From positions 1-61,943 of the IMG/VR virus record IMGVR_UViG_3300025120_000046: a DNA stretch of 61,943 nt. One strand, given 5' to 3'. Made by a program: the position numbers and the translations under genes. The notes under the pieces are model-generated. The model searched no databases. It saw only the letters and a program-made list of their open reading frames with translations, and was not told the origin of the DNA. The stretch comes from a virus. Taxonomy: Duplodnaviria > Caudoviricetes. This document shows positions 18,801 to 53,910 of this stretch, piece by piece; position 1 is the stretch's first letter, and every line of letters starts with the position of its first letter.

Positions 18801-21800
18801 TGAATTAGAGCAATTATATACATCCTCAGGAAGTAATTATTATGTAACAGAAATATCTTCATCACACCCAGCAGTAACAGGATCAGCACCATCTGTAATA
18901 ACGGCTTCATTTATAAACCCAGCAGATTTTTCATTAACATCTAGTTATGATTGGATAGTATATGATAATACAAGTACTAGAACTTATAGTAAACCTAATT
19001 ATGAGGTTTATCAATTAGATCAACCAGCAATAGGAATTAGAAATAGGGTATCAAATAAAATACAGGATGAAAGTGGAGATGCTTATGGGAATGTTTTATC
19101 AACCCAAATAAGTATAGATCAAAACTATTTAATAAGTCAAAGTTACACTGAAGACACAAATAATTTAGAAGTAGGATTTTCACCTCAAGATGAGGTAAAT
19201 GATGATATTATAGCTACATATGGTTATGGAGTAATTTCTGATGCTATTGCAGATCCAAGATTTGTAACATCATCAGATTCATATTATCCAAAATTAAGAG
19301 AAACAGCAGAAGATTATTTCAAAAAATATACTGAAGGTAATGTTTGGGATTATTTAAGATTAATAAAATATTTTGATAATTCATTATTCAAAGCAATTAA
19401 ATCATATGTACCTGCTCGTACTAGTGTAACTACAGGTGTTATAATTAAACAACATATGTTGGAGCGTAATCGTCGCCCAGCTATACAAATAACGCCTAAT
19501 ACTACAATAGCTTTTAGTACTAGTGGTTCATTTGTTACTCAATCTACAGACACAGGAGCTACATATGGATTTGGTTTATATGGAGTAGCTAATTATGGTA
19601 CTGAAGGAGAAATTGCAAGGTGGGGTGCTAATACTTTAAATGTACATAATGTGTTCCAAAATTTAGAATTAAATGCTAATATACCTTTAGGCTCTTACTC
19701 AGGAACTATTCAAACATTTACAGGAGGACATGCATTTAAATCTCCACCAGTAGATTTTACACATTTTACTTCAAGTGGTGCGGTTTCAATTACGGGTTCA
19801 ACATCTTTAATTCCTTTATCAAATTCAGGATCTTTTTTCTATAGTTCTTCAGTAGCTACAGAACCTTCTACTGAATTAGATTTATTTAATTTTATACAAG
19901 CTGGATTCCAAATGACTGGCTCTGCAACTAGAATTACAATGGATCTTAATAATACTTACATTCAATCACCTAATGATGCTGAAGAATACAATCCAGGTTC
20001 TTGTTTTATAGAAACAACAAAACACATAAAATCTAAAGTCCAATGGAATCTTAGCAGAGTAGCAGATGGGAGTGATCCAGCATTAAAATTTCAAATAACT
20101 TCAAGTGAAAGAGGTGTAATATTTAATAGAACATTAACAACAGTGGGTAATGTTTCTACAATTGAGTATACATCTTCATATATGGAATTTTTCCCTGGGG
20201 AGCAATTGTATTTTAATTTTATTGGGGGTGATCAAGGCCAAGTTTATACAAATACATTCCTTAGATTTGGTGATTTAAAGGATGAAAATTCAGGGAGTAT
20301 AGGTAAATTTATAGGAGATTCTGTTTCACAACAAGGATATTTTGAAAAAAATGAAACAATATCAGGTAGTGTATTAGAATGGAATGGAACTCAAGAACAA
20401 CTTTATAATGGAGAATATAGTGGTAGTGTAATAACAGCAACTACCCAATCATTATTAAATAATCCATTTGCACTTGCCCCACCACCAGATACAACTTACC
20501 ACTTAATAATAGATCAAGACAATGGATTAGCAGATCCAATCTCAACTACTGAACTGTTTGGGATGAGGATGTTAATATTTGAATATGACTCAGCTCAATC
20601 AGCAATGGAACAAATTGAAACGGATTTTGCTCCTTATTTAAGTACAGAGTATACAGGAGCAATAGCTATTAAACAAGCAGACTTAACAGGAGTAAATCAT
20701 TTTATATATGCTATGGTAATGCCTATGAGGGTAATTAGAAATCCTTCATCTCCATCAAGTGCAGATTTAGCATTAGTAAATGGAGAATTTAGATCAGATT
20801 TATCAGTGCCCTTTCCAAATATCTCTCCAGATGAAAATATGGCGTATTCAACTTGGACTCAACCAGTTTATGATACTGCTACTAATACATTCGAATATGG
20901 TTTTAACCAAATTAACCCACTTATAAAATGGTCTCAAATGCCTGTTACAACAGGTGGTTGGGAGTTTCTCGATACAGGGTTATTAGGAAATTTAAATTCA
21001 GGTATACTTCACTCAGGGTATTTTGGAAGAACTCGTATTGTGGAAAGATATTTTGGTAGTCCTTCAGGTCTAAAAACTAATCCTCCTGCAGGAACAGAAA
21101 AATTTGTAATGTATAAATTTCCGGGTGCAGAATCTAATAAAGGTAGACCAATAAGATTAGCTGAAGTAGGTACTGGAACAGCACCAGGAAATGCAGGTAC
21201 TCCTACTAGTTTTAGAAATCTTGTTAGTAATGGTACGGGGACTGAAAAAGGAGTTGCATTAACATTTAATTATAGTAAATTTGCTACTAAACAACAAAAC
21301 TTCTTAAATACAATTGCAACTGCATCTTATGGACCAGGAACAGGTAGTTTATTTTTATTGGGAACATCTTTTACATCATCTTATTTCCATGATATTGGAA
21401 ATTGGGTACCATCAGCATTAGTATTTAATAAAAATAGTATAGATTCTCAAGGAAATCTTATTAATAATGAAAGTACATTGTTAAATGAAAATGTTGATTT
21501 TGCATTTAATTTAAATGTTAGTCAAAGTGGTAGACCATTTTTAGATAGTACAAATGTTTTGGGAAGTAGATTTGTACAAAGTTTAAATCAATTAAATGGT
21601 GTAATATCATCTAATGATAATTCAATGATTGGTTATTCATATGTTGCAAATTCAATGGGTGTGAATGGTACTAGAGTATTAAGTGGGTCAGCAGCTGGAT
21701 ATGTTTCAACTGCTGTAAGTTCTATGAATTTAGATGACGATGGTGGTGGATTCTCAGTAGGACAAACTTACACAACAATAAATAATAATACAGGAGTAGA

Positions 21801-23730
21801 TTCAGGTATTGTAATTAGAGTAGATACAGTTGTTGGATCCGGTGGTATTGCTACATTTACTATAATAGATGGAGGTAGTGGAAATACTAATGGAGATGAA
21901 ATTGAAACTAACAAAGGTAGTAATGAGGCTATGTTTTTAGTTACAGGAATAGCAACAGCCCAAAATGGTATATATTCATCTTCATTTGCTAATTCACAAT
22001 TTATATCATTTAATCCTACAGCACCAGATGAAACTAGTTTTTATAATACAGCATTTAATCCATTAATTAATAATGCATCTTCAAGTGTTAAAAACACTTA
22101 CATTATGAAGGTTGAATATGATGATGGTGAAGCAATACCATCAAATATTTTACCTATTATTAGTAGAACAGCTGAGAAAGCTCAAATACCAGATAGTAAT
22201 TATACTACAACTAGAATAATTAACCCTAGATATGTAGGTAGTAGATTACAAAGTGCTGATTACAATAATTATACTCCTGCAACATCAAGTATTACATTTT
22301 TAAATGCATTAAGTGGAAGTGCAGAATCACAATCAGCTTGGAATGGGGATGATAGCTATGCTAATCAAGCAGTAATTAATAAAAACCCAATTTATTTTGC
22401 CCATTTCAAATCATCATTTAATAATTTAAATCTTCCTGGAACTTATACATTTGAAATTGATTCATTAATTTTATCACCTTCATCAAGTGTTCAAGGTGAA
22501 AAAGCACCACAAACACCAGTAGTAATTAAAGTAGATGGTAGTGGAAACGCACTAACTGAAGTTAGAAGTACATTTGAAGTAGATAGAAAAGTAGCAGTAA
22601 CATACGATTCTTTAAAATTTGCTAGTGTAAATTATGCTAAATTAAAAACTGGGGATAATGTTATATTTCAAGGAGCTTTAGAAATGTTAACAGTGGGAGC
22701 TTCAACAACAGGAGAAGAAGGACCTATAGATCAATTTAGATACCCAACATTTACACCAACTATGTCGTTTAATTCATCAAGTTGGGTTGATGGAGGAGGT
22801 TCAGCAACTAATTATACTGAAGTATCTGCATCTTTAAAAGTTTTTGGTATTAATACAAATGATGGGTATTTAGCGACAGGGAGTAAATGTTTATTTTTAA
22901 GAGGATCTGGTGGTTTTATGTCAGCACCATTTAGAAATGATGGAAATGGTGTTCAATATGTAAGTGGTCCTGGATTAGCTATAATAAATAGTATGAATCA
23001 TTGTGTAAGCCAATCTCTTACTGGATCCATAGTTGTTCAAGAATCTGAAAATAGAATTATACCAGGAATTCCTCAGTCATTGTCTCAATCATTTTCAGAA
23101 AACCCAGGTTTAAATGAAAAGGGTATTTATTATTGGAGTCAAAACTTTACAGGTAGTAATTTAGGTGGTTATCGTGCCTCAGAAGGAGCTATACCATTTT
23201 TAATAAAAAAGAATGATGAAATAGAATGTACTTTTGTAAATAATACACAACTAGCAGCAACAGATGGAAAAAATTATGAAACAGTAACATTTATTGTGAC
23301 ATCCATAAGTGGGTCAGTCCCAGGTGATTCCGAAGGTCCACCTACGGCACCTGTAGAAGGAGAATTTTCTGGTTCATATTGCAACTCTACGGTATGTTTT
23401 CAAGCTAAACCTATGGCAACAGCAGCAGGTGTTACTAACATTAGAAATAAAATTAATGTATACCCAGACCCATCAACCTATAATATAGTTGGGGGATTAA
23501 TAGGTTCATTTACAATTAGAAGAAGAGTAAATGCTGATGATAGGGTAATTGTTTATCAAACCGCACCTATAAATACTGGAATAGGTGAAACAACAGGATC
23601 AGGTGGTGGGTTCTTAATACCAAATGACTTTTCACCTCAACAAAAAAGAAATGCTTTAACATTAATTAACCAACTAAAACAGAAAAATGCATTTAGGGAT
23701 GATTCAGAATTACCAGATCCAGTTAAATAA
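15820..23730 (+). CDS. Giant baseplate/tail structural protein (gp7-like wedge initiator with accessory domains)
   Basis: 2636 aa; YLTKKKGTISGLRQLINIWG (gp7/P2 gpI-like KG(T/S) motif), LamG-like segment (FSGSFQEFRYY), GGIATFTIIDGGSG repeat unit. Confidence 0.65.
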   Translation: MKYNESLRKEKSRKEKEIELGYSPIMVTTSSIELSNPVQQLEVSDVTNNNENIIPVSASCTPVNPSTLSSDGFELQDQEIIPSENITGSFTPGKNLVEFFVYDADKNLSSVNYNFTNWTTGKEPGNELLSGSVEEPPTSSITNAISLDPALNAYNLGFDTGQVFTSYNFVNYELGSSIEETFYISEISGDRTEIAIKSNFISSSVALSGYLSLKNQLETATNFDEFYISLFNNDYQIAINIDIISEDTDDPTILIKLYDALPPQFSTKDELYVVTKVGESVAYKINFVEDVQLFIDNANYIKGPNINISLQDLVNNSTTLKSREDLLNTNATSSLNNVLNILNQKGVAITPNYSYNTYSEFVNFSSAKERVNNFYEKVSQIQAYEADITSIQTTVASNPGVSAISQSLASLQTNITNLIENFDGYETYLYYNTSSLYAYPKNTGSGTSYPYDLLSTSSAEVLTWLGSDVENNQYYGGIINSASIYDENNQNWLYYTIPQYIIDNSDNVNYLTFANMVGQSFDEVWIYTKALSERYNTTNDPDSGLPLDLAADAIEGLGFQTFGNNYDNQDNFIGLAGYNDGVYTPPTGSELITKYIAVNSGSIINYWDPEYSFADYVESVTEAAFPYAIDKVSKEIYKRLYHNMAYLTKKKGTISGLRQLINIWGIPNTILRINEFGGKNRDNSNDYDLWYNRFSYAYTPVATQYLASSSILVPWQPLYRNYLTDINEAGDNEFIVPDGVGVRFKTTGFPSSSYAGTFYSQSILAKKSNTTKNSAVDWAISLQYDNQPSGSYSGSSFSDYYEYGNLSFFLSGSESEGGTIQSEKIYLPFFNRGWWTVLLQRDTHASASNNSADVTYTLYAANNQYNGADGNTIGWTGSVSVSLNTPGASQSLNESWNKFSTGVNDGVYIGGYVSGSNVGVVKSGSGGTNGFQAITNGAGKIFSGSFQEFRYYSHAIGEEVFYDFVMNPESVEGNSITGSQSSFDIVNFRAPLGNELEQLYTSSGSNYYVTEISSSHPAVTGSAPSVITASFINPADFSLTSSYDWIVYDNTSTRTYSKPNYEVYQLDQPAIGIRNRVSNKIQDESGDAYGNVLSTQISIDQNYLISQSYTEDTNNLEVGFSPQDEVNDDIIATYGYGVISDAIADPRFVTSSDSYYPKLRETAEDYFKKYTEGNVWDYLRLIKYFDNSLFKAIKSYVPARTSVTTGVIIKQHMLERNRRPAIQITPNTTIAFSTSGSFVTQSTDTGATYGFGLYGVANYGTEGEIARWGANTLNVHNVFQNLELNANIPLGSYSGTIQTFTGGHAFKSPPVDFTHFTSSGAVSITGSTSLIPLSNSGSFFYSSSVATEPSTELDLFNFIQAGFQMTGSATRITMDLNNTYIQSPNDAEEYNPGSCFIETTKHIKSKVQWNLSRVADGSDPALKFQITSSERGVIFNRTLTTVGNVSTIEYTSSYMEFFPGEQLYFNFIGGDQGQVYTNTFLRFGDLKDENSGSIGKFIGDSVSQQGYFEKNETISGSVLEWNGTQEQLYNGEYSGSVITATTQSLLNNPFALAPPPDTTYHLIIDQDNGLADPISTTELFGMRMLIFEYDSAQSAMEQIETDFAPYLSTEYTGAIAIKQADLTGVNHFIYAMVMPMRVIRNPSSPSSADLALVNGEFRSDLSVPFPNISPDENMAYSTWTQPVYDTATNTFEYGFNQINPLIKWSQMPVTTGGWEFLDTGLLGNLNSGILHSGYFGRTRIVERYFGSPSGLKTNPPAGTEKFVMYKFPGAESNKGRPIRLAEVGTGTAPGNAGTPTSFRNLVSNGTGTEKGVALTFNYSKFATKQQNFLNTIATASYGPGTGSLFLLGTSFTSSYFHDIGNWVPSALVFNKNSIDSQGNLINNESTLLNENVDFAFNLNVSQSGRPFLDSTNVLGSRFVQSLNQLNGVISSNDNSMIGYSYVANSMGVNGTRVLSGSAAGYVSTAVSSMNLDDDGGGFSVGQTYTTINNNTGVDSGIVIRVDTVVGSGGIATFTIIDGGSGNTNGDEIETNKGSNEAMFLVTGIATAQNGIYSSSFANSQFISFNPTAPDETSFYNTAFNPLINNASSSVKNTYIMKVEYDDGEAIPSNILPIISRTAEKAQIPDSNYTTTRIINPRYVGSRLQSADYNNYTPATSSITFLNALSGSAESQSAWNGDDSYANQAVINKNPIYFAHFKSSFNNLNLPGTYTFEIDSLILSPSSSVQGEKAPQTPVVIKVDGSGNALTEVRSTFEVDRKVAVTYDSLKFASVNYAKLKTGDNVIFQGALEMLTVGASTTGEEGPIDQFRYPTFTPTMSFNSSSWVDGGGSATNYTEVSASLKVFGINTNDGYLATGSKCLFLRGSGGFMSAPFRNDGNGVQYVSGPGLAIINSMNHCVSQSLTGSIVVQESENRIIPGIPQSLSQSFSENPGLNEKGIYYWSQNFTGSNLGGYRASEGAIPFLIKKNDEIECTFVNNTQLAATDGKNYETVTFIVTSISGSVPGDSEGPPTAPVEGEFSGSYCNSTVCFQAKPMATAAGVTNIRNKINVYPDPSTYNIVGGLIGSFTIRRRVNADDRVIVYQTAPINTGIGETTGSGGGFLIPNDFSPQQKRNALTLINQLKQKNAFRDDSELPDPVK

Positions 23731-25537: not shown

Positions 25538-26551
25538 ATGAGCGCATTCAAACAATTTACAACCAAGGACGTTACTGTAACGCCATTTATAGCAGATAAA
25601 GGATTTGATATTTCTGGTAGTAATATTACTGCCTCTGAATTTGGTATAAATGTATATTATGGAGCAAATGAAACTGTAGGCACATCTACTTATGATGCAA
25701 CAACGGGATTCGTTTTTACATCATCTCAAGGAAATATCTATAATAGTGCTAAACATCTTTATTACACAAATTTTTTAACCCAAAGTACAGGTGATTTTGC
25801 AACAACACAAAGTGTAATTCCTGGGGCAATGAGGGAAGATGATTATTTTTATGGTCCTATTATAGCACCAAGATTTGAAAATTATTTACAATCAACACTT
25901 ACCCAATCTAGATTTTTCCCTACAGGTTCTGGTGCTGCGGGAGTGATTTCTACATTTTCATTACCCCAAAAATTATTTGGTGAAAAAATAATGCCTTATA
26001 CTTTTAAACTCCAATATACAAAATCAGGTACTTTTCCAACTGGACTTCTTATAGAAGATGATGGCGAAGGAAATCTTATAAGTAGTTCAATTAGCTCATC
26101 AGGTGGAGATTTAAATACAAGTTTAATTGTAGGTCAAATATTTTATTCTCAAGGTATAGCTGTATTTACTACTGGAAGTAATAATGGTAGTATTTTAGCA
26201 GGTTTAGGTAAATTTTTGGGTACAACCCAAGGTGCAACCCCAGATCTAGATAATTTAAGAATTCAATTTTCTTCATCATTAACAATATTTGAACAACAAT
26301 ATAAATGTACAATTTTAGAAAATGAGTTTGGATACTCAACTAATCCATCGTTACTTACTAACGGAGGTGGAACTGGAAGTTTAAATGTTGAATATTATCC
26401 GTTTGTTACAGCATCATACTTCACCCCATATGTTACTAGTGTTGGATTATATAATGAAAACACTGAATTAGTAGCGGTAGGAAAATTATCATTCCCAGTC
26501 CCAATTTCACAATTTACGGATACAACAATAATAGTCAATTTCGACGTATAA
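25538..26551 (+). CDS. Tail/baseplate protein (paralog of previous gene)
   Basis: C-terminal FGYSTNPS...YVTSVGLYNENTELVAVGKLSFP. Confidence 0.6.
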   Translation: MSAFKQFTTKDVTVTPFIADKGFDISGSNITASEFGINVYYGANETVGTSTYDATTGFVFTSSQGNIYNSAKHLYYTNFLTQSTGDFATTQSVIPGAMREDDYFYGPIIAPRFENYLQSTLTQSRFFPTGSGAAGVISTFSLPQKLFGEKIMPYTFKLQYTKSGTFPTGLLIEDDGEGNLISSSISSSGGDLNTSLIVGQIFYSQGIAVFTTGSNNGSILAGLGKFLGTTQGATPDLDNLRIQFSSSLTIFEQQYKCTILENEFGYSTNPSLLTNGGGTGSLNVEYYPFVTASYFTPYVTSVGLYNENTELVAVGKLSFPVPISQFTDTTIIVNFDV

Positions 26552-27000
26552 TGAACAATTGGACATATCAAAATCAGGAAGTAGATACAGTATCTGACTT
26601 TCCTGATAATACTTATGGATTTGTATACTCTATAACTCATTTACCTACAGGTAAAAGATATATAGGTAAAAAAATATTATTCTTTACAAGAAAAGTAAAA
26701 CTTACAAAAAAAGATTTACTAGAATATAAAGGAGTAATAGGTAGAAGACCTTCATATAAGCTAGCAGTTAAAGAATCAGATTGGAAAACATATTGGGGAT
26801 CTAATAAAGAAATGTTAGATCTTGTAAAATCTGAACCTGATGAAAATTGGGAAAGAGAAATACTAGAATCAGCATCCACCAAAAAACTATTAACTTACTA
26901 TGAAACAAAATATCAAATGGTTTATCAAGTATTAGAAAAACCAGATGAATTTTGGAATGATAATATTTTAGGTAAATTTTACACTAAAGATTTCCAATAG
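26551..27000 (+). CDS. GIY-YIG family endonuclease (T4 DenA/EndoII-like)
   Basis: YGFVYSIT...KRYIGKK, WKTYWGS, YYETK, NDNILGKF. Confidence 0.8.
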   Translation: MNNWTYQNQEVDTVSDFPDNTYGFVYSITHLPTGKRYIGKKILFFTRKVKLTKKDLLEYKGVIGRRPSYKLAVKESDWKTYWGSNKEMLDLVKSEPDENWEREILESASTKKLLTYYETKYQMVYQVLEKPDEFWNDNILGKFYTKDFQ

Positions 27001-27006
27001 TATAGC

Positions 27007-27037
27007 TTTGATGTCTAAAATTAGTTTTGTATATTGA
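27007..27037 (+). promoter_or_regulatory. Bacteroidota-type promoter
   Basis: TTTG-N19-TATATTGA upstream of primase. Confidence 0.55.
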
Positions 27038-27043
27038 TGGAAC

Positions 27044-27979
27044 ATGGTAAACGAACTATTAATTAATCTAGTAAATTCAGTACTAGGATCTGGTAAACGT
27101 ACTGCACGAGGCAACCAAGCTCATACTTGTCCTTATTGCAACCACCATAAACCTAAATTAGAAATAAATTTTTCCGAGAATAAAAAAGGTTATAACCCAT
27201 GGCATTGTTGGGTGTGTAATAAAAAAGGTACTAGAATCTCCTCTTTATTTAAAATGGTTAAAGCATCATCTGAAAAATTTGATGAATTGTTTAAATTAAT
27301 AGGTAATGAAAAAGAATACAAAGCTAAAGATAGTACTAAAATTCAATTAAAATTACCTGAGGAACTTAAACAATTTTCAGATATTACTACATCAAATATT
27401 GAAGGTAGACGTGCTTTATCTTATTTAAAAAATAGAGGTATTACTGATGATGATATAATTAAATATAATTTAGGATATTGTACATCTGGTAGATACCAAA
27501 ATATGATTATTATTCCTTCATATGATGGGAATGGTCATTTAAATTATTTTACGGGTAGATCATTTGAAAAAGATCCATATATTAAATACCGTAATCCAGA
27601 AACATCAAGAGATATAATTCCATTTGAATTATTTATTAATTGGGACTTACCATTAGTATTATGTGAAGGACCTTTTGATGCAATAGCAATTAAACGTAAT
27701 GCTATACCTTTATTAGGTAAAAATTTACAACAAAATTTATTAATGAAAATAGTAAGATCAACAGTAGAGAAAATATATATTGCTCTAGATTCTGATGCTA
27801 GAAAGCAAGCACTAAAGTTTGCTGAACAGTTTATGGATGAAGGAAAGGAAGTCTACTTAGTAGAACTCGAAGGGAAAGACCCTAGTGAAATGGGATTTAC
27901 CTATTTTACAAATTTAATCCAAAGTACATTTCCATTAACACAATATGATTTAATGGAAAAAAAATTACAACTAGTATGA
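27044..27979 (+). CDS. dnaG: DNA primase (Zn finger + TOPRIM)
   Basis: CPYCNHH...WHCWVC, YLKNRG, LCEGPFDA, IALDSDA, KDPSE. Confidence 0.9.
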   Translation: MVNELLINLVNSVLGSGKRTARGNQAHTCPYCNHHKPKLEINFSENKKGYNPWHCWVCNKKGTRISSLFKMVKASSEKFDELFKLIGNEKEYKAKDSTKIQLKLPEELKQFSDITTSNIEGRRALSYLKNRGITDDDIIKYNLGYCTSGRYQNMIIIPSYDGNGHLNYFTGRSFEKDPYIKYRNPETSRDIIPFELFINWDLPLVLCEGPFDAIAIKRNAIPLLGKNLQQNLLMKIVRSTVEKIYIALDSDARKQALKFAEQFMDEGKEVYLVELEGKDPSEMGFTYFTNLIQSTFPLTQYDLMEKKLQLV

Positions 27980-28749
27980 GTAAAAAGAATATTAAAAAGT
28001 CCTATAATAGGATTTTAGAAATCAGTGAGGATGCAAAGCAAATCACACTACCAGATTCAAGGTATTATAGACGAAATGGGAAATATTACCCATCAATTAC
28101 CTATGTACTACAATATTACCCAAAAGGCAAATTTTTCCAAGAATGGTTAAAAAAAGTTGGTTATAGTGCTGATTGGATAGTTAAAAAAGCAGGTGAAGAA
28201 GGTACTTTAGTACATGAAATGTGTGAAGATTATCTTAATGGGAAAGAATTAAATTTCTTATCACCAAGTGGTAATCCAATGTATAACCCATTAGTATGGC
28301 AAATGTTTTTAAGATTTGTTGATTGGTGGGAAACTTACAACCCAAAATTAATTGAAACTGAAGTACACATATTTTCAGATGAATTAAAAGTAGCAGGTAC
28401 TTGTGATATGGTATGTGAAATTGGTGGTGAGCTATGGATTATTGATTTTAAAACATCTAACCATTTACAAACAACATATGATTTACAAACTGCAGTTTAT
28501 GGTAAATGTTATGAAGAATGTTATGGTAAAACTCCTGATCGTTATGGTGTGTTATGGTTAAAATCTTCTAAAAGAGGTCCTAAAGAAGGTGCAATGCAAG
28601 GTAAAGGATGGGAAATGTATGAATCAAAACGTACACAAGAAGAAAATATTGACATTTTTAACACAGTTAAAAAATTATTTGATTTAGAAAACCCAAGACA
28701 CAAACCAGTATTTACTGAATTTAGAACTACAGCTAAACGAAATTTGTGA
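27976..28749 (+). CDS. PD-(D/E)XK exonuclease
   Basis: YPSITYVL, GTLVHE, AGTCD, IIDFKTS, LQTAVY. Confidence 0.85.
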   Translation: MSKKNIKKSYNRILEISEDAKQITLPDSRYYRRNGKYYPSITYVLQYYPKGKFFQEWLKKVGYSADWIVKKAGEEGTLVHEMCEDYLNGKELNFLSPSGNPMYNPLVWQMFLRFVDWWETYNPKLIETEVHIFSDELKVAGTCDMVCEIGGELWIIDFKTSNHLQTTYDLQTAVYGKCYEECYGKTPDRYGVLWLKSSKRGPKEGAMQGKGWEMYESKRTQEENIDIFNTVKKLFDLENPRHKPVFTEFRTTAKRNL

Positions 28750-28773
28750 TATTTATAACAAAATATTCACTTT

Positions 28774-29574
28774 ATGATATCATTAGTAACATTATTGAAA
28801 GAAGCAACTGAAACCCCAAAAGCAATTATATTAGCTGGGGCACCAGGTGCTGGTAAAGGATATATATTAAAAGGTTTAGATTTAGGTGGTTTAAAAGTAT
28901 TAAATATTGATAATATTTTTGTTAACATGCTTAAAAAAGCAAATGTATCTTTAGATTTAAAAAACGCAACACCAGAAGAAAGAAGCCAACAAGCTAAATC
29001 TATGGCAGCTGCAAATAAAGAATTTAAAGGAGATGTTGCAAGTGTAATTTTAAATAAAGAATCATTTATATTAGATGGTACGGCTGCATCATTAAGAAAT
29101 ACTCTTAAGCTAAAAGATGAATTAAAGGAAGCAGGGTATGAAGTATTTATGCTTTATGTTTATACTGATTTAGAACGTTCATTAAGACAAAATCAAAATA
29201 GATTTGAAAAATCAGGTGGTGAAGATAGAAGTTTAGCACCTGCAATTGTATTACGTACTTGGAAAAATGTAACTGATAATTTACCTGAATATGCTAATGC
29301 ATTTGGTGATAATTTTGTAGCAGTTGCTAATACTTTAGAAGGTCAAAAAATTGGAGATATAGAAAAAATAGTTCAAAAATACCTTAATCCATTCAAACCA
29401 GAAGGTACTAAACCTAAAACACCAGCTCAACAAAAAAAATCTGACGAACAAAAAGCAGAATTAAATGCTGAAATTCAAGATATGTTAAGTGATGAATTTT
29501 TATATGATGTAATTGAATACACTATGTCTAAAGAAGAAGCACAAATGAGATTAAAACAATTTTTAAATGGGTAA
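28774..29574 (+). CDS. Zeta-toxin-like / AAA_33 P-loop kinase, late-expressed
   Basis: ILAGAPGAGKG Walker A, FILDGT, SLRQNQNR; TATTTATA at 28750-28757; leader MISLVTLLKE. Confidence 0.75.
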   Translation: MISLVTLLKEATETPKAIILAGAPGAGKGYILKGLDLGGLKVLNIDNIFVNMLKKANVSLDLKNATPEERSQQAKSMAAANKEFKGDVASVILNKESFILDGTAASLRNTLKLKDELKEAGYEVFMLYVYTDLERSLRQNQNRFEKSGGEDRSLAPAIVLRTWKNVTDNLPEYANAFGDNFVAVANTLEGQKIGDIEKIVQKYLNPFKPEGTKPKTPAQQKKSDEQKAELNAEIQDMLSDEFLYDVIEYTMSKEEAQMRLKQFLNG

Positions 29575-31618
29575 AGTAATAGCAGCATACGGAGGTGGTT
29601 TTAAACCACCAACAAGAGGTCATTTTGAAATAGTACAAAAAGCTCTTAATGAGTTTCCTGAAATAGATGAATTTTTTATTTATGTAGGGGGTAAAGAACG
29701 TAATGGTATTGATCAAGCTGAAGCTATTCAAGTTTGGGAAATATATAAAAAATATTTAGCTAATAAAATTGATATTCAACCTGCTAAACAACCAATTAAA
29801 AGTGTATTAGATTTAGCCAAAGAAAATCCTCAGGATATAGTATATTTTATTTTAGGTTATAGAGAAGGCAGAGAAGATGATACTCAAGATATAACAGATA
29901 GATCTAAGTTAGAAGAAAAATATCCAAATTTAATAGTAAAAACACTAGGAACTCCAGATCCAAATATGAGTGGAACTAATGCTAGAAAAGCAATAGCTGA
30001 TGAAGAAGAATTTATAAAATTTTTACCTGATGAAGTTGAAGAAAAATCTGAAATTTGGAATATAATAAGACCAGCAGTAAATGAAAATGACCCTAAAAAA
30101 GGTACAGGTAAAAAACCTGAAGGATCAAAACGTAGATTATACACAGATGAGGATCCAAAAGATACAGTAGGTATAAAATTTTCTACTAGACAAGATATAG
30201 TAGATACATTAGGTAAAGCATCTTTTAAAGCTAAATCACATGCTAGACAATCTCAAATTATTAATTTAATACACCAAAGAGTAAGAGCAGCGTATGGTAG
30301 AGCAAAAGATCCTGCTGTAAAAAAACGATTAAAAACTGGTTTAGATTATATTACAGATAAAAAAGAAGCATCTAAGAAAAAGACACAACGTTTAAAAAAT
30401 CAAAAAGAAAATATAGATCCTAAATCACAAAAGCAACATAAAGGTAAAGCAGCACCATTTGGCTCAGCATATAAACCATTAAGTGAAGAAATAGTAGGTA
30501 GTAAAATACACTGTAATAACTGTGATTGGAGTTGGGAGATTGAAGATGGTGGTGCTGATTTGTTTATTTGTCATAAATGTAATCATGATAATACTGAATA
30601 TATAGAAAGACAAAAGTTTACAATTAATGAAAATGCTACTTATACTAAAAAAATTAATTTAATAGATATTTTAGCAACTTTTACTCAACATATGTTAGAT
30701 ATAGGTATGAATATTTCTCCATTACCTAAGTTAGAATTTATAGATGGTGATAGTGAAAATGCTAGTCAATTTTTAGGCAAAACTGCGTATTACGACCCAA
30801 ATACCCAAACTATAGTACTATATACGGAAGGTAGACATCCTAAGGATATAACGCGTAGTTACGCGCATGAAATGGTACACCACATGCAAAATTTAGAAGA
30901 TAGATTAGGCAATATCCAAACAACAAATACACAAGAAGATGATAATTTAAATAATATTGAAGCTGAAGCTAATTTAAAAGGTACAATGACATTTAGAAAT
31001 TGGACTGATAGTTTAAATGAAGATAAATCTTATAAACATAAATTTGGATTTAATGATAAATTAGGTAAGGATCCATTTGGTTTAAATCAATTTGCTAGAG
31101 AAATAGCAACAGAAGTTGAAGACGTTATGAATAAAGAAAAAACAAGTTATAAAATATTTTCAGATATGGATGGTGTTTTAACAGATTTTGATAAATCATT
31201 TTTAAAATATTCAGAAGGAATACCACCAAGAGAATATGAAAAAACATATGGTAAAGAAAAATTTTGGGAATTAATTGATGGTAAAGGTAAAGTAGGATTT
31301 TGGGTAGGAATGCCTTGGATGGAAGATGGAAAACAATATTGGGATTATATTAAAAATTATGACACAGAACTACTATCTTCACCTTCAAGATCATCAACAT
31401 CTAGATTAGGTAAAAGATTATGGGTAAGAAATAATATGCCTGGAATTAAATTAACGTTAGCTCAAGCGGCTAAAAAACAAAATTATGCAGCACCTAATCA
31501 TATACTAATTGATGATAGACCTTCAAATATAGATCAATGGAGATCACAAGGTGGAATTGGTATATTACACACATCAGCTGCCGATACAATATCACAACTT
31601 AAAAAATTAGGATTATGA
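29567..31618 (+). CDS. Multidomain protein: cytidylyltransferase-like NTase + basic domain + Zn ribbon + HExxH zincin + HAD 5'-nucleotidase
   Basis: GGGFKPPTRGH and MSGTNAR; CNNC..CHKC; SYAHEMVHH; FSDMDGVLTDF and LIDDRPSNI. Confidence 0.75.
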   Translation: MGKVIAAYGGGFKPPTRGHFEIVQKALNEFPEIDEFFIYVGGKERNGIDQAEAIQVWEIYKKYLANKIDIQPAKQPIKSVLDLAKENPQDIVYFILGYREGREDDTQDITDRSKLEEKYPNLIVKTLGTPDPNMSGTNARKAIADEEEFIKFLPDEVEEKSEIWNIIRPAVNENDPKKGTGKKPEGSKRRLYTDEDPKDTVGIKFSTRQDIVDTLGKASFKAKSHARQSQIINLIHQRVRAAYGRAKDPAVKKRLKTGLDYITDKKEASKKKTQRLKNQKENIDPKSQKQHKGKAAPFGSAYKPLSEEIVGSKIHCNNCDWSWEIEDGGADLFICHKCNHDNTEYIERQKFTINENATYTKKINLIDILATFTQHMLDIGMNISPLPKLEFIDGDSENASQFLGKTAYYDPNTQTIVLYTEGRHPKDITRSYAHEMVHHMQNLEDRLGNIQTTNTQEDDNLNNIEAEANLKGTMTFRNWTDSLNEDKSYKHKFGFNDKLGKDPFGLNQFAREIATEVEDVMNKEKTSYKIFSDMDGVLTDFDKSFLKYSEGIPPREYEKTYGKEKFWELIDGKGKVGFWVGMPWMEDGKQYWDYIKNYDTELLSSPSRSSTSRLGKRLWVRNNMPGIKLTLAQAAKKQNYAAPNHILIDDRPSNIDQWRSQGGIGILHTSAADTISQLKKLGL

Positions 31619-31821
31619 GTACATTAAATGCAATAAATGGAGGTTATACAGGAGGTTCTCCTAGAGTAAGAAGTGAAAATGTTAAAGATTTTGCTCCCCA
31701 AGAACCAGTACAAAAAATATTAATAAATGATTTAGTAAAACAAATAAAAATATGGAAAGTTGATGGTAAGCTTACTTCAGAAGAAATACAAACAATAATT
31801 GCAGAATTAAAAAAAATATAG
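31615..31821 (+). CDS. Small hypothetical protein
   Basis: Overlapping operonic ORF. Confidence 0.55.
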   Translation: MSTLNAINGGYTGGSPRVRSENVKDFAPQEPVQKILINDLVKQIKIWKVDGKLTSEEIQTIIAELKKI

Positions 31822-31823
31822 TT

Positions 31824-32402
31824 ATGAGTAAAGTACAGGGGTTAAATAAAGAATTTACTGAAAAAGATGTAAAACGTATGCGTAATCTTATTCAAGGTAA
31901 ACACGGAGAAAAAGTAGGTCAAAGTGTAGGTTATGCTAAAAAAGATATACATTATAAAGAAGGTGATGTTTGGGAAATAGATGGCCGCAAATGGACTATT
32001 AAAAATGGTATTAAGCAAAACATAACAAAATTAGATAAAGCTAAAAAAGCTCATTTAATGCCTTTATTTTGTCCTAATTGTAGATCTAAAATGCATACTG
32101 ATATTGATAAACCATATTATAATATACATAAAAAATGTTTTAACTGTGTTGTTGAATTTGAGCATCATTTAAAAACATCAGGATTATATGAAGCTTATGT
32201 TAAAAAAATTAACAATGCTGACATTGATGGTGTTATAGAAGAATTTAAATTATTTATAGAATCCGAATTATCTATATCAAATAATTCATTTATTACAGAG
32301 CAAGGTGATGTTGAAAAATGGGTTGGTAGACCCAATGCCGAAAAAGTTTTAGAAGGTTTAGCTAAAACTATTAAACATTTAGAAAGTATCAAAAGTAAAT
32401 AA
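31824..32402 (+). CDS. Hypothetical Zn-finger protein
   Basis: CPNC...CFNC; GDVWEIDGRKWTIKNG. Confidence 0.6.
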   Translation: MSKVQGLNKEFTEKDVKRMRNLIQGKHGEKVGQSVGYAKKDIHYKEGDVWEIDGRKWTIKNGIKQNITKLDKAKKAHLMPLFCPNCRSKMHTDIDKPYYNIHKKCFNCVVEFEHHLKTSGLYEAYVKKINNADIDGVIEEFKLFIESELSISNNSFITEQGDVEKWVGRPNAEKVLEGLAKTIKHLESIKSK

Positions 32403-32431
32403 ATCTTTATATATTTATAAATAAAATTAAC

Positions 32432-33457
32432 ATGAGCAATTTCGATATTCATTCTTTTTTCAAAAATCAATATATAAACGAAGCGATTAATTCTAAACTT
32501 AATTCTAATGAAATGAGTAAAGAAGAAGATGCTAAAATATTAATATCTGCTGTAGAAGAAGCAGTTGGTGGGATTGATGATAGATTTGGATCAGGAGGAT
32601 ATAATGGTAGAGATGGATATTATTTAAGAGTATATGATTTAGAATATTGGGAAGATGAAGAAGTTGATGCTATTAAAAAAGCATTCGAAATGGCAAATAC
32701 CCAAACCGAAAAATATGATTTTGAATTTTATAGTGTAACTGATTATGATGAGGATCCAGGTGAAAGAACATACCCGGCTTCAATATCATTTTTTGCTGTG
32801 GAAAAACCAGTAAATGAAATAGATATGAATGATCCTGTTGTAATGAAAGCAAGAGCGGCTAAAATGGCTGATGAAAAAGAAATGGCTAGACAAGCATCAT
32901 TAGATAAAAAATATGGTTCTACATTCATGGATAAATTAGATGCTGAAATAAGTTTAAAACAAGAACTTCAAGATCTAAAAGACGAAAGAGAACAGCTAAT
33001 GATAGATATGGAGCAAGAAGCAGAACCAGAAGGAGGAGAAATAGCTGATAGATACGGTTCTAGACTTAATGACATTGATGCTAGAATGGCTGAAATAAAA
33101 CCTGAATTAGATGATTTAAGAATGTATGAATCAGTTAATGAAAGTTCTTCTTCTGAAGAAAAAAGAATTGCTATGCGTGCTATTAAAAGTATTGCTAAGT
33201 ATAGAGGTGTTAGTGAAGATGAAGCAAGAAACGATCTTATGAGAGCAGCTAAAGAATTAGGTAGTTTAAAAGAAGCAATACTAGATATTAAAGAAACTAT
33301 TGAATTAGGAAAAAATTTAAATGAAGAACTTTGCGCTAAAGGTAAAGCATATAGAAAACGTAGAATGGCTGCAGGTGAAAAATCATCAGCTTACTTATCA
33401 GGACGTGCTGTTAAAGTATGTAAAGGTCAAATGAGTGGTAGGAAAAAAAAGAAGTAA
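32432..33457 (+). CDS. Modular acidic protein with basic C-terminal domain (putative internal head protein)
   Basis: Late motif at 32412-32419; INE/VNE/LKE/LNE-bounded modules; C-terminal LCAKGKAY...AYLSGRAVKVCKG. Confidence 0.6.
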   Translation: MSNFDIHSFFKNQYINEAINSKLNSNEMSKEEDAKILISAVEEAVGGIDDRFGSGGYNGRDGYYLRVYDLEYWEDEEVDAIKKAFEMANTQTEKYDFEFYSVTDYDEDPGERTYPASISFFAVEKPVNEIDMNDPVVMKARAAKMADEKEMARQASLDKKYGSTFMDKLDAEISLKQELQDLKDEREQLMIDMEQEAEPEGGEIADRYGSRLNDIDARMAEIKPELDDLRMYESVNESSSSEEKRIAMRAIKSIAKYRGVSEDEARNDLMRAAKELGSLKEAILDIKETIELGKNLNEELCAKGKAYRKRRMAAGEKSSAYLSGRAVKVCKGQMSGRKKKK

Positions 33458-34098
33458 TGAATAACTTTGATTTAAAAAAATATTTATCTGAAGGTAAATT
33501 AACTGAAGATATTCCTGTAGAAGAAATGGAATCTTTTGCTGAAGGTAGAGGTGAAGGCGCAGAAACAATAGCTGACAATGCTAAAGAAAAAGGTGGTAAT
33601 TCAATGTTGACTTATCACCATTTTAAAGTTAAAGCACCTTATTATAAAAAAGCAACAGATGGTAATTTTGATAAAGATGAATTTACTGAAGATTATAAAG
33701 GATTTTTGGAAGAATTATATGAAAAAACTAAAGATGGTATGAACATTGAACCTATAGCTTTTCAAGAGATTATGGGTAAAATTGAAGTATTAGGTGAACT
33801 TTTAGTTGAAAATAAAGAACCATTAAATGAAGCAGAAGAAGACAGTAATATAGTCCCTGAAGCTGAATTAATTTTACCTAGAGGCAAAAAAGTAGTATTA
33901 CAAGCTGAAGACACAGATTATAAAAGAGGTTTAATAGTTGAACTACTAGACAATGGTGGTTATGAGATGGCCTACTGGTATGATAAACCAGATAAACCAT
34001 ACCCAGTTGAAATATTAGTTGATGGTCAAAGTATTAAGGAAGATGGTAAAATCGTTGAAATGAAATTTCACCCACAAGATTATTATGATAAACAATAG
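33457..34098 (+). CDS. Two-module acidic protein (putative internal head protein)
   Basis: Leader MNNFDLKKYLSE; LTE and LNE sites. Confidence 0.6.
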   Translation: MNNFDLKKYLSEGKLTEDIPVEEMESFAEGRGEGAETIADNAKEKGGNSMLTYHHFKVKAPYYKKATDGNFDKDEFTEDYKGFLEELYEKTKDGMNIEPIAFQEIMGKIEVLGELLVENKEPLNEAEEDSNIVPEAELILPRGKKVVLQAEDTDYKRGLIVELLDNGGYEMAYWYDKPDKPYPVEILVDGQSIKEDGKIVEMKFHPQDYYDKQ

Positions 34099-41884: not shown

Positions 41885-41888
41885 AATT

Positions 41889-42164
41889 ATGGGTAAAAAA
41901 TCAAAACTATATGAAGAAAAAGTAATTAAGTATAAAGGTGCAAGACATTATTTAATTAGAATGGAAGGTGAAGAGCATTTTAAACACCATAGATGGGACA
42001 ATCCAGCAATAGTACCCCTATCAAGAAAAAGTGAATTTAAAAAAGGATATTTTTTAAGTGGGATTGAATACCCAGAAGAAGTATATAACGAAATAATGAA
42101 AGAAAGAGAAGGTTTACCTTGGTATAAGCAATCAGCACCTAAAGGAGAAACATATAGAAACTAG
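41889..42164 (+). CDS. Hypothetical protein
   Basis: HRWDNPAI...YFLSGIEY; operonic. Confidence 0.6.
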   Translation: MGKKSKLYEEKVIKYKGARHYLIRMEGEEHFKHHRWDNPAIVPLSRKSEFKKGYFLSGIEYPEEVYNEIMKEREGLPWYKQSAPKGETYRN

Positions 42165-42166
42165 TT

Positions 42167-42580
42167 ATGAGAGAGTCAACAATACAAGCTTTACCTTATA
42201 AAGGTGAGATTCATAAAAAAGCTTGGGGTCATGAGTTATGGATTATCAATAATGAAAAATATTGTGGTAAATTATTAGTATTTAAAGCTAATAAACAATT
42301 TTCAATGCATTATCATATGTTAAAAGATGAAGCATGGTATATTAATAAAGGAGAATTTGAATATAAATATATTGACACAGAAACTTCAGAATTAAGGTCT
42401 AAAATAGTTAGAGAAGGAGATTGTATTCATTTAATTCCAGGACAACCTCACCAAATGTTGGCTTTGCAAGAAGGAAGTTGTATATTCGAGGTATCAACAC
42501 AACACTTTGATAGTGATAGTTATAGGATTTTACCTGGGGCATCACAAGATGAAAATAATAATGAAGATTTACCATTTTAA
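42167..42580 (+). CDS. Cupin (sugar-phosphate isomerase-like)
   Basis: KAWGHE, YCGKLL, SMHYHMLKDEAWY, PGQPH, EVSTQHFDSDSYR. Confidence 0.8.
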   Translation: MRESTIQALPYKGEIHKKAWGHELWIINNEKYCGKLLVFKANKQFSMHYHMLKDEAWYINKGEFEYKYIDTETSELRSKIVREGDCIHLIPGQPHQMLALQEGSCIFEVSTQHFDSDSYRILPGASQDENNNEDLPF

Positions 42581-42582
42581 AT

Positions 42583-43272: not shown

Positions 43273-43282
43273 ATAATAAGTT

Positions 43283-51843: not shown

Positions 51844-52446
51844 ATGAGTCAATTATTAATAGAAACACACGTATTTAAACCTAAAGGGGTACGTTTAAAC
51901 GAATCACGTTCAAAACGAGGTTTACCTATAGTTGAAGGAATATTAGCTACTGCTGAAGTAAAAAACGGTAATGGCAGATATTATTCTAAAGAACTTTGGG
52001 ATAGAGAAATAGACAAATACAGAGTATTAGTTGACGAAAATAGAGCAATGGGTGAATTAGACCACCCTGAATCATCAGTAATAAATTTACAAAATGTATC
52101 ACATAATATATCAGATATGTGGTGGGATGGAGATAATGTAATGGGTAAAATAGAAATTTTACCTACCCCAAATGGTAATATACTTAAGGCATTAGTTGAA
52201 AGTGGAATTACAGTTGGTGTTTCATCTAGAGGAATGGGTACATTAGAACAAAAAGGTGAATTAATGGAAGTACAAGATGATTTTGAATTACTGTGTTGGG
52301 ATTTTGTTTCAACACCTTCTAATCCAGATTCATTTATGCATTTAGTTAGAGAAAATAAAGAATATAAAGCACAAGATAATTATAAAAAAGTAAATACAAT
52401 ACTAGGTGAAATATTATGTTCGCATGGTTTTTGCCCTATTGTATAA
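51844..52446 (+). CDS. gp21: Prohead maturation protease (T4 gp21-like)
   Basis: KNGNGRYY, GELDHP, NVSH, TPNGNI, GVSSRGMG, DFVSTPS. Confidence 0.93.
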   Translation: MSQLLIETHVFKPKGVRLNESRSKRGLPIVEGILATAEVKNGNGRYYSKELWDREIDKYRVLVDENRAMGELDHPESSVINLQNVSHNISDMWWDGDNVMGKIEILPTPNGNILKALVESGITVGVSSRGMGTLEQKGELMEVQDDFELLCWDFVSTPSNPDSFMHLVRENKEYKAQDNYKKVNTILGEILCSHGFCPIV

Positions 52447-52632: not shown

Positions 52633-53910
52633 ATGAACAGAAACTTTTTAAAAGAAGCAATCGCTGATGCTAAAGCAGTCAAAGAATCTGCAATAGCAAA
52701 TGCTAAAGTCGCTCTAGAAGAAGCTTTTTCCCCACAAGTTCAAGCCATGTTCGCTAGTAAAATAGAAGAAATGGAAAAAGAAGATGTGAAGGAAGAAATG
52801 GACGATAAAGTAGACGAAGCTAAAAAAGATGATGATAAAATGGAGGAAGGAAAAGAATACATGACCAAAAAGGAAAAGCGCGAAGGTGACGATCGTAAGT
52901 CTGATAACAAGGCTGAGACTGAAACTGAAAAAATGCGTAAAATCAAAGAGGAAGATGTATCTGATCTAGACGAAATTTTAGCAGAATTAGAAAAAGATGA
53001 AGATCTAAAGGAAAACAAAGACAAAGAAATCGACGAAGCAAAAAAGGACGACGACAAGGAAGACATCAAAGAAGATGAAAGAACTGACGCTGAAGAAGAA
53101 GGCTACGAAGATGGAATGGAAGACGAAAAAGAAGATGAGGACGATGAAGATATCGACCTTGATGACTTATCGGAAGAAGACCTTAAGAAATTTATCGAAG
53201 ATGTAATCGAAGATATGGTTAACGCTGGTGAAATTGAAGCTGGTGAATCATTCGAAGATGATGTAGATGTTAATGTTGACGTAGACGGAGAAATTGAAGT
53301 AGAAGATGATGAAGAAACTTCTGTGGATGTAGCCGAAGCTAAAGAAGACATTGATGAAGCAAAAGATAAAGTTGACGAAAAGAAAAAACAAGGATACGAT
53401 GCAAGATTGGATGATGCTGAAGGTGCTAGACATGGTAAAAAGAAACAAGATATGGCTCAAAGAAGAGCTGATTCTGAAAACATGGAAAAAGCTGACGGTA
53501 AAAGAAAATTTGCAGGAGACAAAGAAATGGACAAAGTTAAAGAAGAATTAGCTGAAGCATACGCTACAGTTAAAACTTTAAAAACTGAGTTAAATGAAAT
53601 CAACTTATTGAATGCTAAATTACTCTACACGAATAAAGTGTTCCGTGGCAAAAACTTAACTGAATCACAAAAAGTTAAAGTATTAGGAGCTTTTGATAAA
53701 GCTGAATCTGTGAAAGAAGTAAAACTTGTGTTTGAAACTATCGATGGTAGTGTTAAAACAAAAGTATCTAATAAATCTATAAGCGAAGGCTTTAGATCTA
53801 AAGGAAGTGCTTCTAACATGACAGTAAATAAGAAAGAGACTAAAAAACAACCTATTGTTGAATCAGATGAGATGGTCGCTCGCTTTAAGAAATTAGCTGG
53901 AATAATCTAA
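52633..53910 (+). CDS. Prohead core scaffold protein (gp22-like)
   Basis: Very acidic coiled coil between protease and capsid genes; LNEINLLNAKLLY; C-terminal RFKKLAGII. Confidence 0.8.
   Translation: MNRNFLKEAIADAKAVKESAIANAKVALEEAFSPQVQAMFASKIEEMEKEDVKEEMDDKVDEAKKDDDKMEEGKEYMTKKEKREGDDRKSDNKAETETEKMRKIKEEDVSDLDEILAELEKDEDLKENKDKEIDEAKKDDDKEDIKEDERTDAEEEGYEDGMEDEKEDEDDEDIDLDDLSEEDLKKFIEDVIEDMVNAGEIEAGESFEDDVDVNVDVDGEIEVEDDEETSVDVAEAKEDIDEAKDKVDEKKKQGYDARLDDAEGARHGKKKQDMAQRRADSENMEKADGKRKFAGDKEMDKVKEELAEAYATVKTLKTELNEINLLNAKLLYTNKVFRGKNLTESQKVKVLGAFDKAESVKEVKLVFETIDGSVKTKVSNKSISEGFRSKGSASNMTVNKKETKKQPIVESDEMVARFKKLAGII

Follow-up and report, generated by a model that had tools for sequence, protein, structure and literature searches.

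The IMG/VR virus record IMGVR_UViG_3300025120_000046, analyzed here over nucleotides (nt) 1 to 61,943 and called the window, derives from the genome of a marine T4-like myophage with a G+C content of ~30%. Positions 29567..31618 of its plus strand form an open reading frame (ORF) of 683 amino acids (aa) without internal stops, which overlaps the upstream ORF of a P-loop kinase by 8 nt. The encoded chain comprises five modules: A, an HxGH-type nucleotidyltransferase (NTase); B, a basic module made of helices; C, a Cys4 ribbon; D, a minimal zincin; and F, a haloacid dehalogenase (HAD)-type nucleotidase. From sequence comparison and structure prediction we believe that this chain is probably a capsid cargo polyprotein, that is, five independent units that would be cut apart by the prohead protease of the phage.

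The five-module layout and its placement behind a P-loop kinase gene had been proposed in a first-pass annotation made from the DNA letters, and both hold. All of the motifs that it named are present: TRGH at residues 16-19, AVNE at 170-173, KGTGKKP..RRLYTDEDP at 178-198, PLSE at 304-307, CNNC at 316-319, CHKC at 335-338, TINE at 352-355, HEMVHH at 434-439, SLNE at 482-485, and DMDGV at 533-537. SGTNAR lies in addition at 135-140. An AlphaFold2 model built with 61 homologs contains folded units at residues 1-170 (predicted local distance difference test [pLDDT], ~90), 208-281 (helices), 365-483, and 526-683, the last preceded by a helix at 506-522. The pLDDT falls below 50 at 171-196, 281-316, 319-340, 342-356, 484-501, and 511-525, which may be owed in part to alignment gaps. 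The predicted template modeling score (pTM) of the chain is 0.34, and no packing between domains is predicted. The chain is thus not modeled as one packed unit in which the xxE sites that flank the modules are buried; these sites sit at a pLDDT of <50.

Identity of the modules

All modules lie on the plus strand. Module A (29567..30085; aa 1-173; 19.8 kDa; isoelectric point [pI], 4.8) is a nucleotidyltransferase of the HxGH superfamily whose Rossmann-like fold bears motifs of the (T/H)xGH and SxTxxR types, and TRGH and SGTNAR are invariant in its aligned homologs. Foldseek places it near NadD, PPAT, and NMNAT (E of 6e-6 to 1e-4), with a template modeling score of 0.75 to 0.79 to PPAT. Its signature reads GGFKPPTxGH, with Lys-Pro-Pro. 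The module scores below the Pfam gathering score for CTP_transf_like (15.1 versus 21 bits), which homolog P0094 clears with 23.7 bits, and below the NCBIfam equivalog cut-offs of TIGR00482 (NadD; 21.5 versus 112.45 bits) and TIGR01510 (CoaD; 18.5 versus 103.3 bits). Sequence searches against solved structures yielded just marginal PPAT matches (best E, 0.002) and none for module D.

Module B (30086..30487; aa 174-307; 15.1 kDa; pI, 10.2) is basic and helical. A stand-alone relative of 96 aa exists in Pelagibacter phage HTVC033P, and the Atlas clusters closest to module B consist of small viral proteins, 145-181 aa in length. Module C (30488..30631; aa 308-355; 5.7 kDa) is a Cys4 zinc ribbon with C316, C319, C335, and C338, and its predicted fold is of low confidence.

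Module D (30632..31021; aa 356-485; 14.9 kDa) is minimal and zincin-like, with HEMVHH and conserved E465/E467. When folded alone by AlphaFold2 (pLDDT, 87; pTM, 0.83), it shows, in model numbering, a helix at 14-27, three strands, a helix at 74-92 that carries HEMVHH, and a helix at 108-137 that carries E114/E116; as modeled, this is a zincin fold with an HExxH helix, a downstream Glu helix, and a three-strand sheet. Structural comparison with VIA-align returned Wss1 (Z, 8.3), SPRTN (7.6), PprI/IrrE (7.6), and ArdC (7.0), Z values of a size that can reflect common structural arrangements; among the 50 matches listed, most are HExxH zinc metallopeptidases. Foldseek gave an E of 0.017 to IrrE.

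Module F (31022..31618; aa 486-683; 22.7 kDa) is an NT5C-like nucleotidase of the HAD type, in which DMDGV and the DD pair at 649-650 are conserved. It matches PHROG 2643 (5'-3' deoxyribonucleotidase) with an E of 2.2e-22 and scores 17.6 bits against Pfam NT5C (cut-off, 24.8).

None of the enzyme modules reaches an NCBIfam equivalog cut-off, and Pfam and PHROG searches found no homology of the modules to the T4 internal proteins (IPs) or Alt; PADLOC returned no match. Kinases of the Zeta family act on UDP-N-acetylglucosamine or NAD. The combination of a transferase resembling PPAT and NMNAT with a kinase of the Zeta family and a nucleotidase resembling NT5C would point to nucleotides or dinucleotide cofactors. 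NAD salvage of the NamPT plus NMNAT type is unsupported: NamPT (PF04095) was found in 0 of 5 related genomes that are 97-100% complete and likewise not in the window record, which is 40% complete.

Module joints and the [LIV]-x-E motif

The modules meet at four plus-strand joints: V171-N-E173 (30077..30085), within the stretch of pLDDT <50 at 171-196; L305-S-E307 (30479..30487), within that at 281-316; I353-N-E355 (30623..30631); and L483-N-E485 (31013..31021), at the edge of that at 484-501. T4 gp21 cleaves after the Glu of L/I-X-E (PMC9026906). Across 61 aligned homologs E355 is invariant, while E173 and E485 are conserved in ≥90%, and local-alignment ends cluster exactly at joint 1. At joint 2, module B ends in YKPLNE, YEPVKE, YKELNE, or YDKVNE in homologs. 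Twelve different 9-mers encode joint 3. Every module border in the homologs carries [LIV]-[NKSTD]-E, irrespective of the neighboring module, and tandem sites are retained where A abuts D, as in RPSVKE-IINE-NATY.

In an all-versus-all comparison, 43% of alignment ends and 34% of alignment starts fell on the motif, against 11% of random positions, with peaks exactly at the Glu. Among 146 diverse representatives at 50% identity, [LIVM]xE precedes 118 of 128 internal zincin copies. Of 112 zincin copies that have at least 30 residues behind them, 84 are followed by the motif, compared with just 2 of 28 copies at the C terminus, which come from only about three lineages; one such protein closes with ..RNWEDNIKNV-stop. 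Inside the modules, [LIV]xE is depleted in D (0.41 versus 1.86 per sequence), F (0.27 versus 1.27), and B (0.25 versus 0.63). The above-chance feature is the placement of the motif in linkers and its conserved position, not the number of motifs.

Module shuffling among relatives

The polyprotein family comprises at least 4,876 proteins at E ≤0.001 among 7,999 scored. Counting module order together with the lengths of unassigned inserts, the 119 listed homologs fall into 58 arrangements, so that the architecture is not invariant. A comes first in 119 of these 119 homologs, D is present in 119 of 119, and F comes last in 118 of 119. B and C shift, vanish, or gain companion modules: each may stand before the zincin, after it, or be missing.

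Additional modules are also present in homologs, among them DUF6934, plastocyanin, another HExxH unit, a unit of PHROG 23027/14518, and a putatively ParB-like unit that carries DGNHR. The plastocyanin cassette (PF00127; E, 3.6e-16) occupies residues 209-291 of homolog P0092, and P0105 and P0108 are likewise cassette cases, also involving DUF6934; a Pfam search of 26 homologs found nothing beyond plastocyanin, DUF6934, and a weak CTP_transf match.

A profile of module D matches 3,057 representatives of clusters formed at 50% identity. These proteins span 145-1421 aa, and the module sits in them anywhere from residue 3 to residue 839, sometimes in two or three copies; its position varies likewise among the 146 diverse representatives. 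Among 50,697 phage records, the only cultured carriers are immuto phages.

At 79 IMG/VR loci the gene order is conserved: two paralogs, a SegE-like endonuclease, a primase, an exonuclease, the kinase, and the polyprotein, followed by ORFs of 68, 192, 341, and 213 aa. The isolate Flavobacterium phage immuto, whose host is Flavobacterium sp. LMO8, retains this order in part. Coupling of the polyprotein to a Zeta-like kinase, proposed in the first-pass annotation, holds at 69 loci out of the 79. Among the ten exceptions, contig ends clip six, nothing but a solo zincin is present at three, and a different gene occurs at one. Module F is a gene of its own in 29 of the 79 loci and in immuto, where that gene (gp087) bears a leader. 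At the three solo-zincin loci, just a zincin of 142 aa separates the exonuclease gene from the ORF of 192 aa. Together with the 58 arrangements, these split and solo forms argue well for the earlier suggestion that the units are released from one precursor.

In immuto (locus L001; 3218-4126 and 4128-4990), a 302-aa protein with a GDIDL motif stands in the place of the kinase, and a 907-aa chain (KNV73_gp088) starts with a paralogous unit bearing GDLDI; motifs of this kind are known from Pol-beta-type nucleotidyltransferases. The papers on immuto listed in our searches deal with DNA modification and polymerases (PMC10516641).

The kinase gene and N-terminal leaders

The Zeta-toxin-like P-loop kinase (28774..29574, plus strand; 266 aa) is translationally coupled to the polyprotein; its stop overlaps the polyprotein ATG in the sequence ATGGGTAA. 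It scores 59 bits against Pfam Zeta_toxin (cut-off, 22.3; E, 5.7e-16) and 28.3 bits against AAA_33, has a conserved Walker A motif (GAPGAGKG), and is similar to a portion of PHROG 16619, labeled "minor head protein." It lies below the PezT equivalog (NF041574, 16.7 versus 470 bits). Toxin-antitoxin pairing with an epsilon or PezA partner is not seen at the kinase, whose neighbors are the exonuclease and the polyprotein, in the course of analyses that included no search aimed at antitoxins. A frameshift fusion of kinase and polyprotein was considered and rejected: the overlap ATGGGTAA in the window has a +1 geometry, and other loci overlap by 4 nt or have gaps. Because the shift direction is not conserved across loci, ordinary coupling is more likely. 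With regard to the possibility that the leaderless chain rides on the leader-bearing kinase, a predicted complex between kinase and module A scored 0.09, 0.34, and 0.00, the mark being 0.32.

The kinase starts with a leader of 10 residues, MISLVTLLKE (28774..28803, plus strand), ending in L-K-E and followed by Ala. An alignment of 32 kinases shows an invariant L8 and ≥90% conservation of M1, I2, L4, and E10, and the leader is as conserved as the P-loop; L or I at position 8 together with E at position 10 is seen in 45 of 50 distinct kinase N termini. The ORFs of the three solo zincins begin with MAKLTSLLNE, MVKLVSLINE, and MTKLINLLNE (M-x-K-L-x-x-L-[LI]-N-E). Many split HAD ORFs carry leaders such as MSKSIIDLLE, MKKTPTLLDLYE, and MYKLTDLYKQIKE, and some as called begin right at MDGV. 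MNQLTKFLVDGILNE or a similar leader occurs on 23 distinct polyprotein N termini among the loci and on 11 listed proteins. The leaders of kinase, solo zincin, and split HAD resemble, by sequence, the T4 capsid targeting sequence, which is 10 residues long, with processing governed by positions 8 and 10 (PMC9026906). Phages also carry Zeta-like kinases fused to MuF head proteins (PMC5512222).

Prohead protease, scaffold-like protein, and promoter-like motifs

The window encodes gp25/gp6-like baseplate proteins, the large terminase, the gp20 portal, Peptidase_S77, a very acidic scaffold-like protein, and the gp23 capsid protein. The T4 gp21-type prohead protease (51844..52446, plus strand) matches Pfam Peptidase_S77 (PF03420) with 104.8 bits (E, 5.4e-30), and such a protease is likewise encoded by immuto and by 2 of the 2 complete relatives that were searched. 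Between protease and major capsid protein lies the scaffold-like protein (52633..53910, plus strand), which served as an internal reference for the motif: it contains 25 [LIV]xE, compared with 11.7 ± 2.9 in shuffles.

Two ORFs between portal and protease, 48418-49278 and 50645-51835, are likewise motif enriched (14 versus 6.7 and 15 versus 7.4). In ORF 49271-50641, two LxE sites are followed by MSTTGGGAGSATFTPGTGMQYA, which is near-identical to ESNTGGGAGSGTFTPGTGAQWA of the major capsid protein (53954-55669), where it follows predicted propeptide sites.

The promoter-like motif TATTTATA (28750..28757, plus strand) immediately follows the stop codon of the exonuclease gene and stands 24 nt ahead of the ATG of the kinase. 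At a distance of 15-37 nt it recurs ahead of ORF 11027 (the first of the baseplate operon), ORF 46491 (portal), and ORFs 1055, 7809, 23811, 32432, 34460, 39711, 43839, 48418, 55786, 58195, and 61417. Its TATATTTATA(A) class (spacers at 1031, 7791, 11012, 23786, 28750, 32412, 46471, 48398, 55756, 58173, and 61398) precedes the portal, the baseplate-operon head, other capsid and tail ORFs, the kinase, and the 341-aa gene, while the TTCGTATATT class (spacers at 1980, 3110, 40540, and 27020) precedes an endonuclease, a dehydrogenase, and, in a variant form, the primase. Within 60 nt upstream in related loci, exact TATTTATA is found at 39 of 69 kinase genes, 0 of 71 primase genes, 1 of 75 exonuclease genes, and 0 of 61 module A starts; most remaining kinase loci have a one-letter variant.

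The first-pass annotation had placed a late promoter over the kinase gene. A promoter-like motif is indeed there, and the genes that share it suggest, by association, that it may be a late promoter. The operon carries the motif of the portal and baseplate genes and not that of the primase, which does not point to early-only expression. Four marine metatranscriptome runs from one study contain short contigs 90-100% like all parts of 27000-33500; such contigs show neither strand, start, nor timing and may include carried-over DNA, and they were not used as evidence.

Two downstream ORFs share modules with the polyprotein family, one of 341 aa (32432-33457) and one of 213 aa (33457-34098), both on the plus strand, with leaders MSNFDIHSFFKNQYINE and MNNFDLKKYLSE, respectively. 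These leaders are related, and both ORFs are rich in [LIV]xE. The product of the 341-aa gene spans 228-733 aa in relatives, and its C-terminal Cys/Lys-rich module is an insert in homolog P0039; the module of the 213-aa gene is found inside the polyproteins of loci L021, L041, and L047. By sequence, both look like further cargo chains drawn from the same module pool.

A proposed capsid cargo polyprotein and its alternatives

We favor the capsid cargo reading because the window encodes an S77 protease and the joints match the gp21 motif, because the sites sit in low-pLDDT linkers between confident folds, and because the motif after the zincin accompanies having a neighbor. Likewise, stand-alone units (F and the zincin) exist and carry leaders, the scaffold-like protein is motif enriched, and the promoter-like motif is common to portal, baseplate operon, and kinase. 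In the mechanism that we propose, the polyprotein would be made late, in one transcription unit with the leader-bearing kinase, and would enter the prohead core, where the gp21-type serine protease would cut it after Glu173, Glu307, Glu355, and Glu485. The resulting pieces of ~20, 15, 6, 15, and 23 kDa would remain in the head and pass into the host with the DNA. Such delivery at infection had also been suggested in the first-pass annotation and would fit this scheme. Once in the host, kinase, NTase, and nucleotidase may target pools of nucleotides or dinucleotides, and the zincin may have a protein as its target. The kinase would be a separately tagged cargo. In related phages modules are swapped, added, dropped, or split off at the joints, so that the payload would change quickly.

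Several observations weigh against this reading. The main gap is the missing leader: 109 of 120 listed polyproteins are leaderless, including that of the window, which starts with MGKVIAAYGGGF and in which residue 3 already opens the first NTase strand. An N-terminal [LIVM]xE as a general cargo mark was rejected, as it occurs within the first 12 residues of ~13 of 60 window ORFs, near chance, and the leader argument is therefore restricted to conserved leaders. The fixed order, with A first and F last, is unneeded by fully independent units, and the gene adjoins primase and exonuclease, outside the head module. The interior of module A contains five [LIV]xE and is not depleted (3.58 versus 3.43 per sequence), the count over the whole polyprotein is at the composition expectation (9 versus 9.1 ± 2.5 in shuffles), and the Val at P3 of site 1 falls outside the strict L/I of the T4 gp21 motif. 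The motif is brief, and hence the statistics are weak. In addition, the homologs are kin, so that the counts given above are not independent and overstate the number of independent events, a concern that extends to the few lineages behind the C-terminal zincin copies.

The main rival is that the chain is a self-processing polyvalent protein, in which module D cuts in cis or in trans, in the cytoplasm or before packaging. Module D has an intact HExxH, a conserved Glu helix, and a fold nearest to Wss1, SPRTN, IrrE, and ArdC; it occurs in all of the listed homologs as a hub of variable position, in some with two or three copies, and the published metallopeptidase hub behaves alike (PMC5512222). 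We nevertheless consider self-processing unlikely, as it accounts less well for the identity of the joints with the gp21 motif, for the leaders of single-domain proteins, and for the solo zincins. The joint motif is identical with the cleavage specificity established for the protease type (S77) encoded by the phage, and it is enriched in the scaffold-like protein. Furthermore, it ends the leader of the single-domain kinase and joins modules in zincin-free neighboring genes, and at three loci a solo zincin has its own leader and no polyprotein to process.

Another possibility is an uncut multidomain enzyme that tethers successive steps of a nucleotide pathway, the joints being a favored flexible-linker sequence inherited with each module. 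The nearly constant termini, with A and F at opposite ends of the listed homologs, would suit such an enzyme, fused cofactor enzymes that combine a kinase with an HxGH transferase are known (NadR and CoA synthase), and cutting of the polyprotein is, for its part, deduced. However, F and D occur as separate genes, modules change their order, plastocyanin and other unrelated modules are inserted, and no inter-domain packing is predicted. Tethering would also leave it unclear why the Glu is lost where the zincin ends the protein and why units that stand alone acquire leaders with this motif at their end. On balance, a permanently joined enzyme seems improbable to us. That the joints are recombination scars, short A-rich microhomologies (AATGAA) for cassette exchange with no role in the protein, is very unlikely: the genome is AT rich and AATGAA is found at many joints, but P3 stays hydrophobic through 8 different codons, P2 varies while the Glu does not, tandem sites are kept, and the motif ends N-terminal leaders, which have no cassette joint. 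Since 8 different codons serve P3, selection acts on the protein.

Relation to known systems

A close parallel to the proposed capsid cargo polyprotein is offered by IPI, IPII, IPIII, and Alt of T4. In both cases the phage is of the T4 type with an S77 protease and a cut, here predicted, after the Glu of L/I-X-E, and Alt provides a precedent for an enzyme as capsid cargo (PMC9026906). Kinase, solo zincin, and split HAD also have in common with them 10-residue leaders whose key positions are 8 and 10. In contrast to the T4 internal proteins, several unrelated enzymes are concatenated here, predicted to be freed by internal cuts, and their modules are reshuffled among thousands of variants, while the chain in the window is itself leaderless.

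A second parallel is the polyvalent proteins described by Iyer, Burroughs, Anand, de Souza, and Aravind in 2017, in which many unrelated effector domains share a chain with a zincin-like metallopeptidase hub, Zeta-like kinases occur as cargo, and packaging and delivery with the DNA are predicted (PMC5512222). With five modules and a zincin fold, the 683-aa chain falls within the definition of two to fifteen unrelated domains around a zincin hub. The authors distinguish 12 clades of these metallopeptidases and propose zincin self-processing for polyvalent proteins and for DdrB of phage P1, whereas joints for a prohead protease are not mentioned in the available text (PMC5512222). The same text has 0 occurrences of "phosphatase" and 2 of "nucleotidyltransferase," both Pol-beta, and describes no HxGH transferase or HAD nucleotidase.

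The inner-body and ejection proteins of phiKZ, 201phi2-1, and SPN3US are similar in that a gp21-like protease cuts proteins inside the head after Glu at many sites, with redundancy among them, and the cargo enters the host (PMC9026906, PMC5694885, PMC7411985). For phiKZ gp175, cutting has been carried out in vitro (PMC9026906). Unlike the joints described here, however, the motif in that distinct phage lineage is S/A-X-E, and the substrates, in the same sources, are mostly structural or uncharacterized proteins with propeptides and not chains of recognizable small enzymes.

Finally, a P-loop kinase gene coupled to a compact PPAT/NMNAT-like transferase resembles pairs of a kinase and an HxGH adenylyltransferase in cofactor synthesis, such as NadR and the PPAT-DPCK pair of CoA synthase. 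In contrast to these, the equivalog cut-offs are not reached, the signature GGFKPPTxGH has Lys-Pro-Pro, and no NamPT was found in the five relatives searched. Our literature searches found no paper describing this polyprotein family.

Implications

If a capsid cargo polyprotein is indeed what these phages make, the rule of tagging and gp21 cutting known from T4 would grow from a few small internal proteins to modular kits of injected enzymes, in phages that are very abundant among uncultured marine phages (at least 4,876 homologs and 3,057 zincin-bearing cluster representatives). Many unannotated phage proteins would become candidate effectors of the first minute of infection, a simple sequence rule might serve to predict capsid cargo, and the joints and leaders could serve as naturally evolved guidelines for packing foreign proteins into capsids of the T4 type. 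The relative of the polyprotein in the isolate immuto makes the idea directly testable.

It is conceivable, and to us about an even prospect or slightly less, that any small protein can become injected cargo in a combinatorial payload of marine T4-like phages by acquiring a leader of ~10 residues or by in-frame splicing between two [LIV]-x-E joints, be unpacked from the chain by the head protease, and then act before phage gene expression against nucleotide-based host defenses. The thousands of variants would, in that case, constitute a fast-evolving arsenal of kinase, nucleotidyltransferase, nucleotidase, zincin, ParB-like, and other units, with a role against nucleotide-based defenses as the most plausible one.

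Other genes in the window

An ORF of 2,636 aa (15820-23730), without a PHROG match at an E of 1e-5, follows the baseplate genes. The SegE-like GIY-YIG homing endonuclease at 26551-27000 (PF19835, 91.6 bits) adjoins the primase; its best PHROG, 447, is labeled "NAD synthetase," apparently a mislabel. An auxiliary cluster at 40571-43813 contains dehydrogenase-like, cysteine-dioxygenase-like cupin, methyltransferase, and thymidylate-kinase-like genes.

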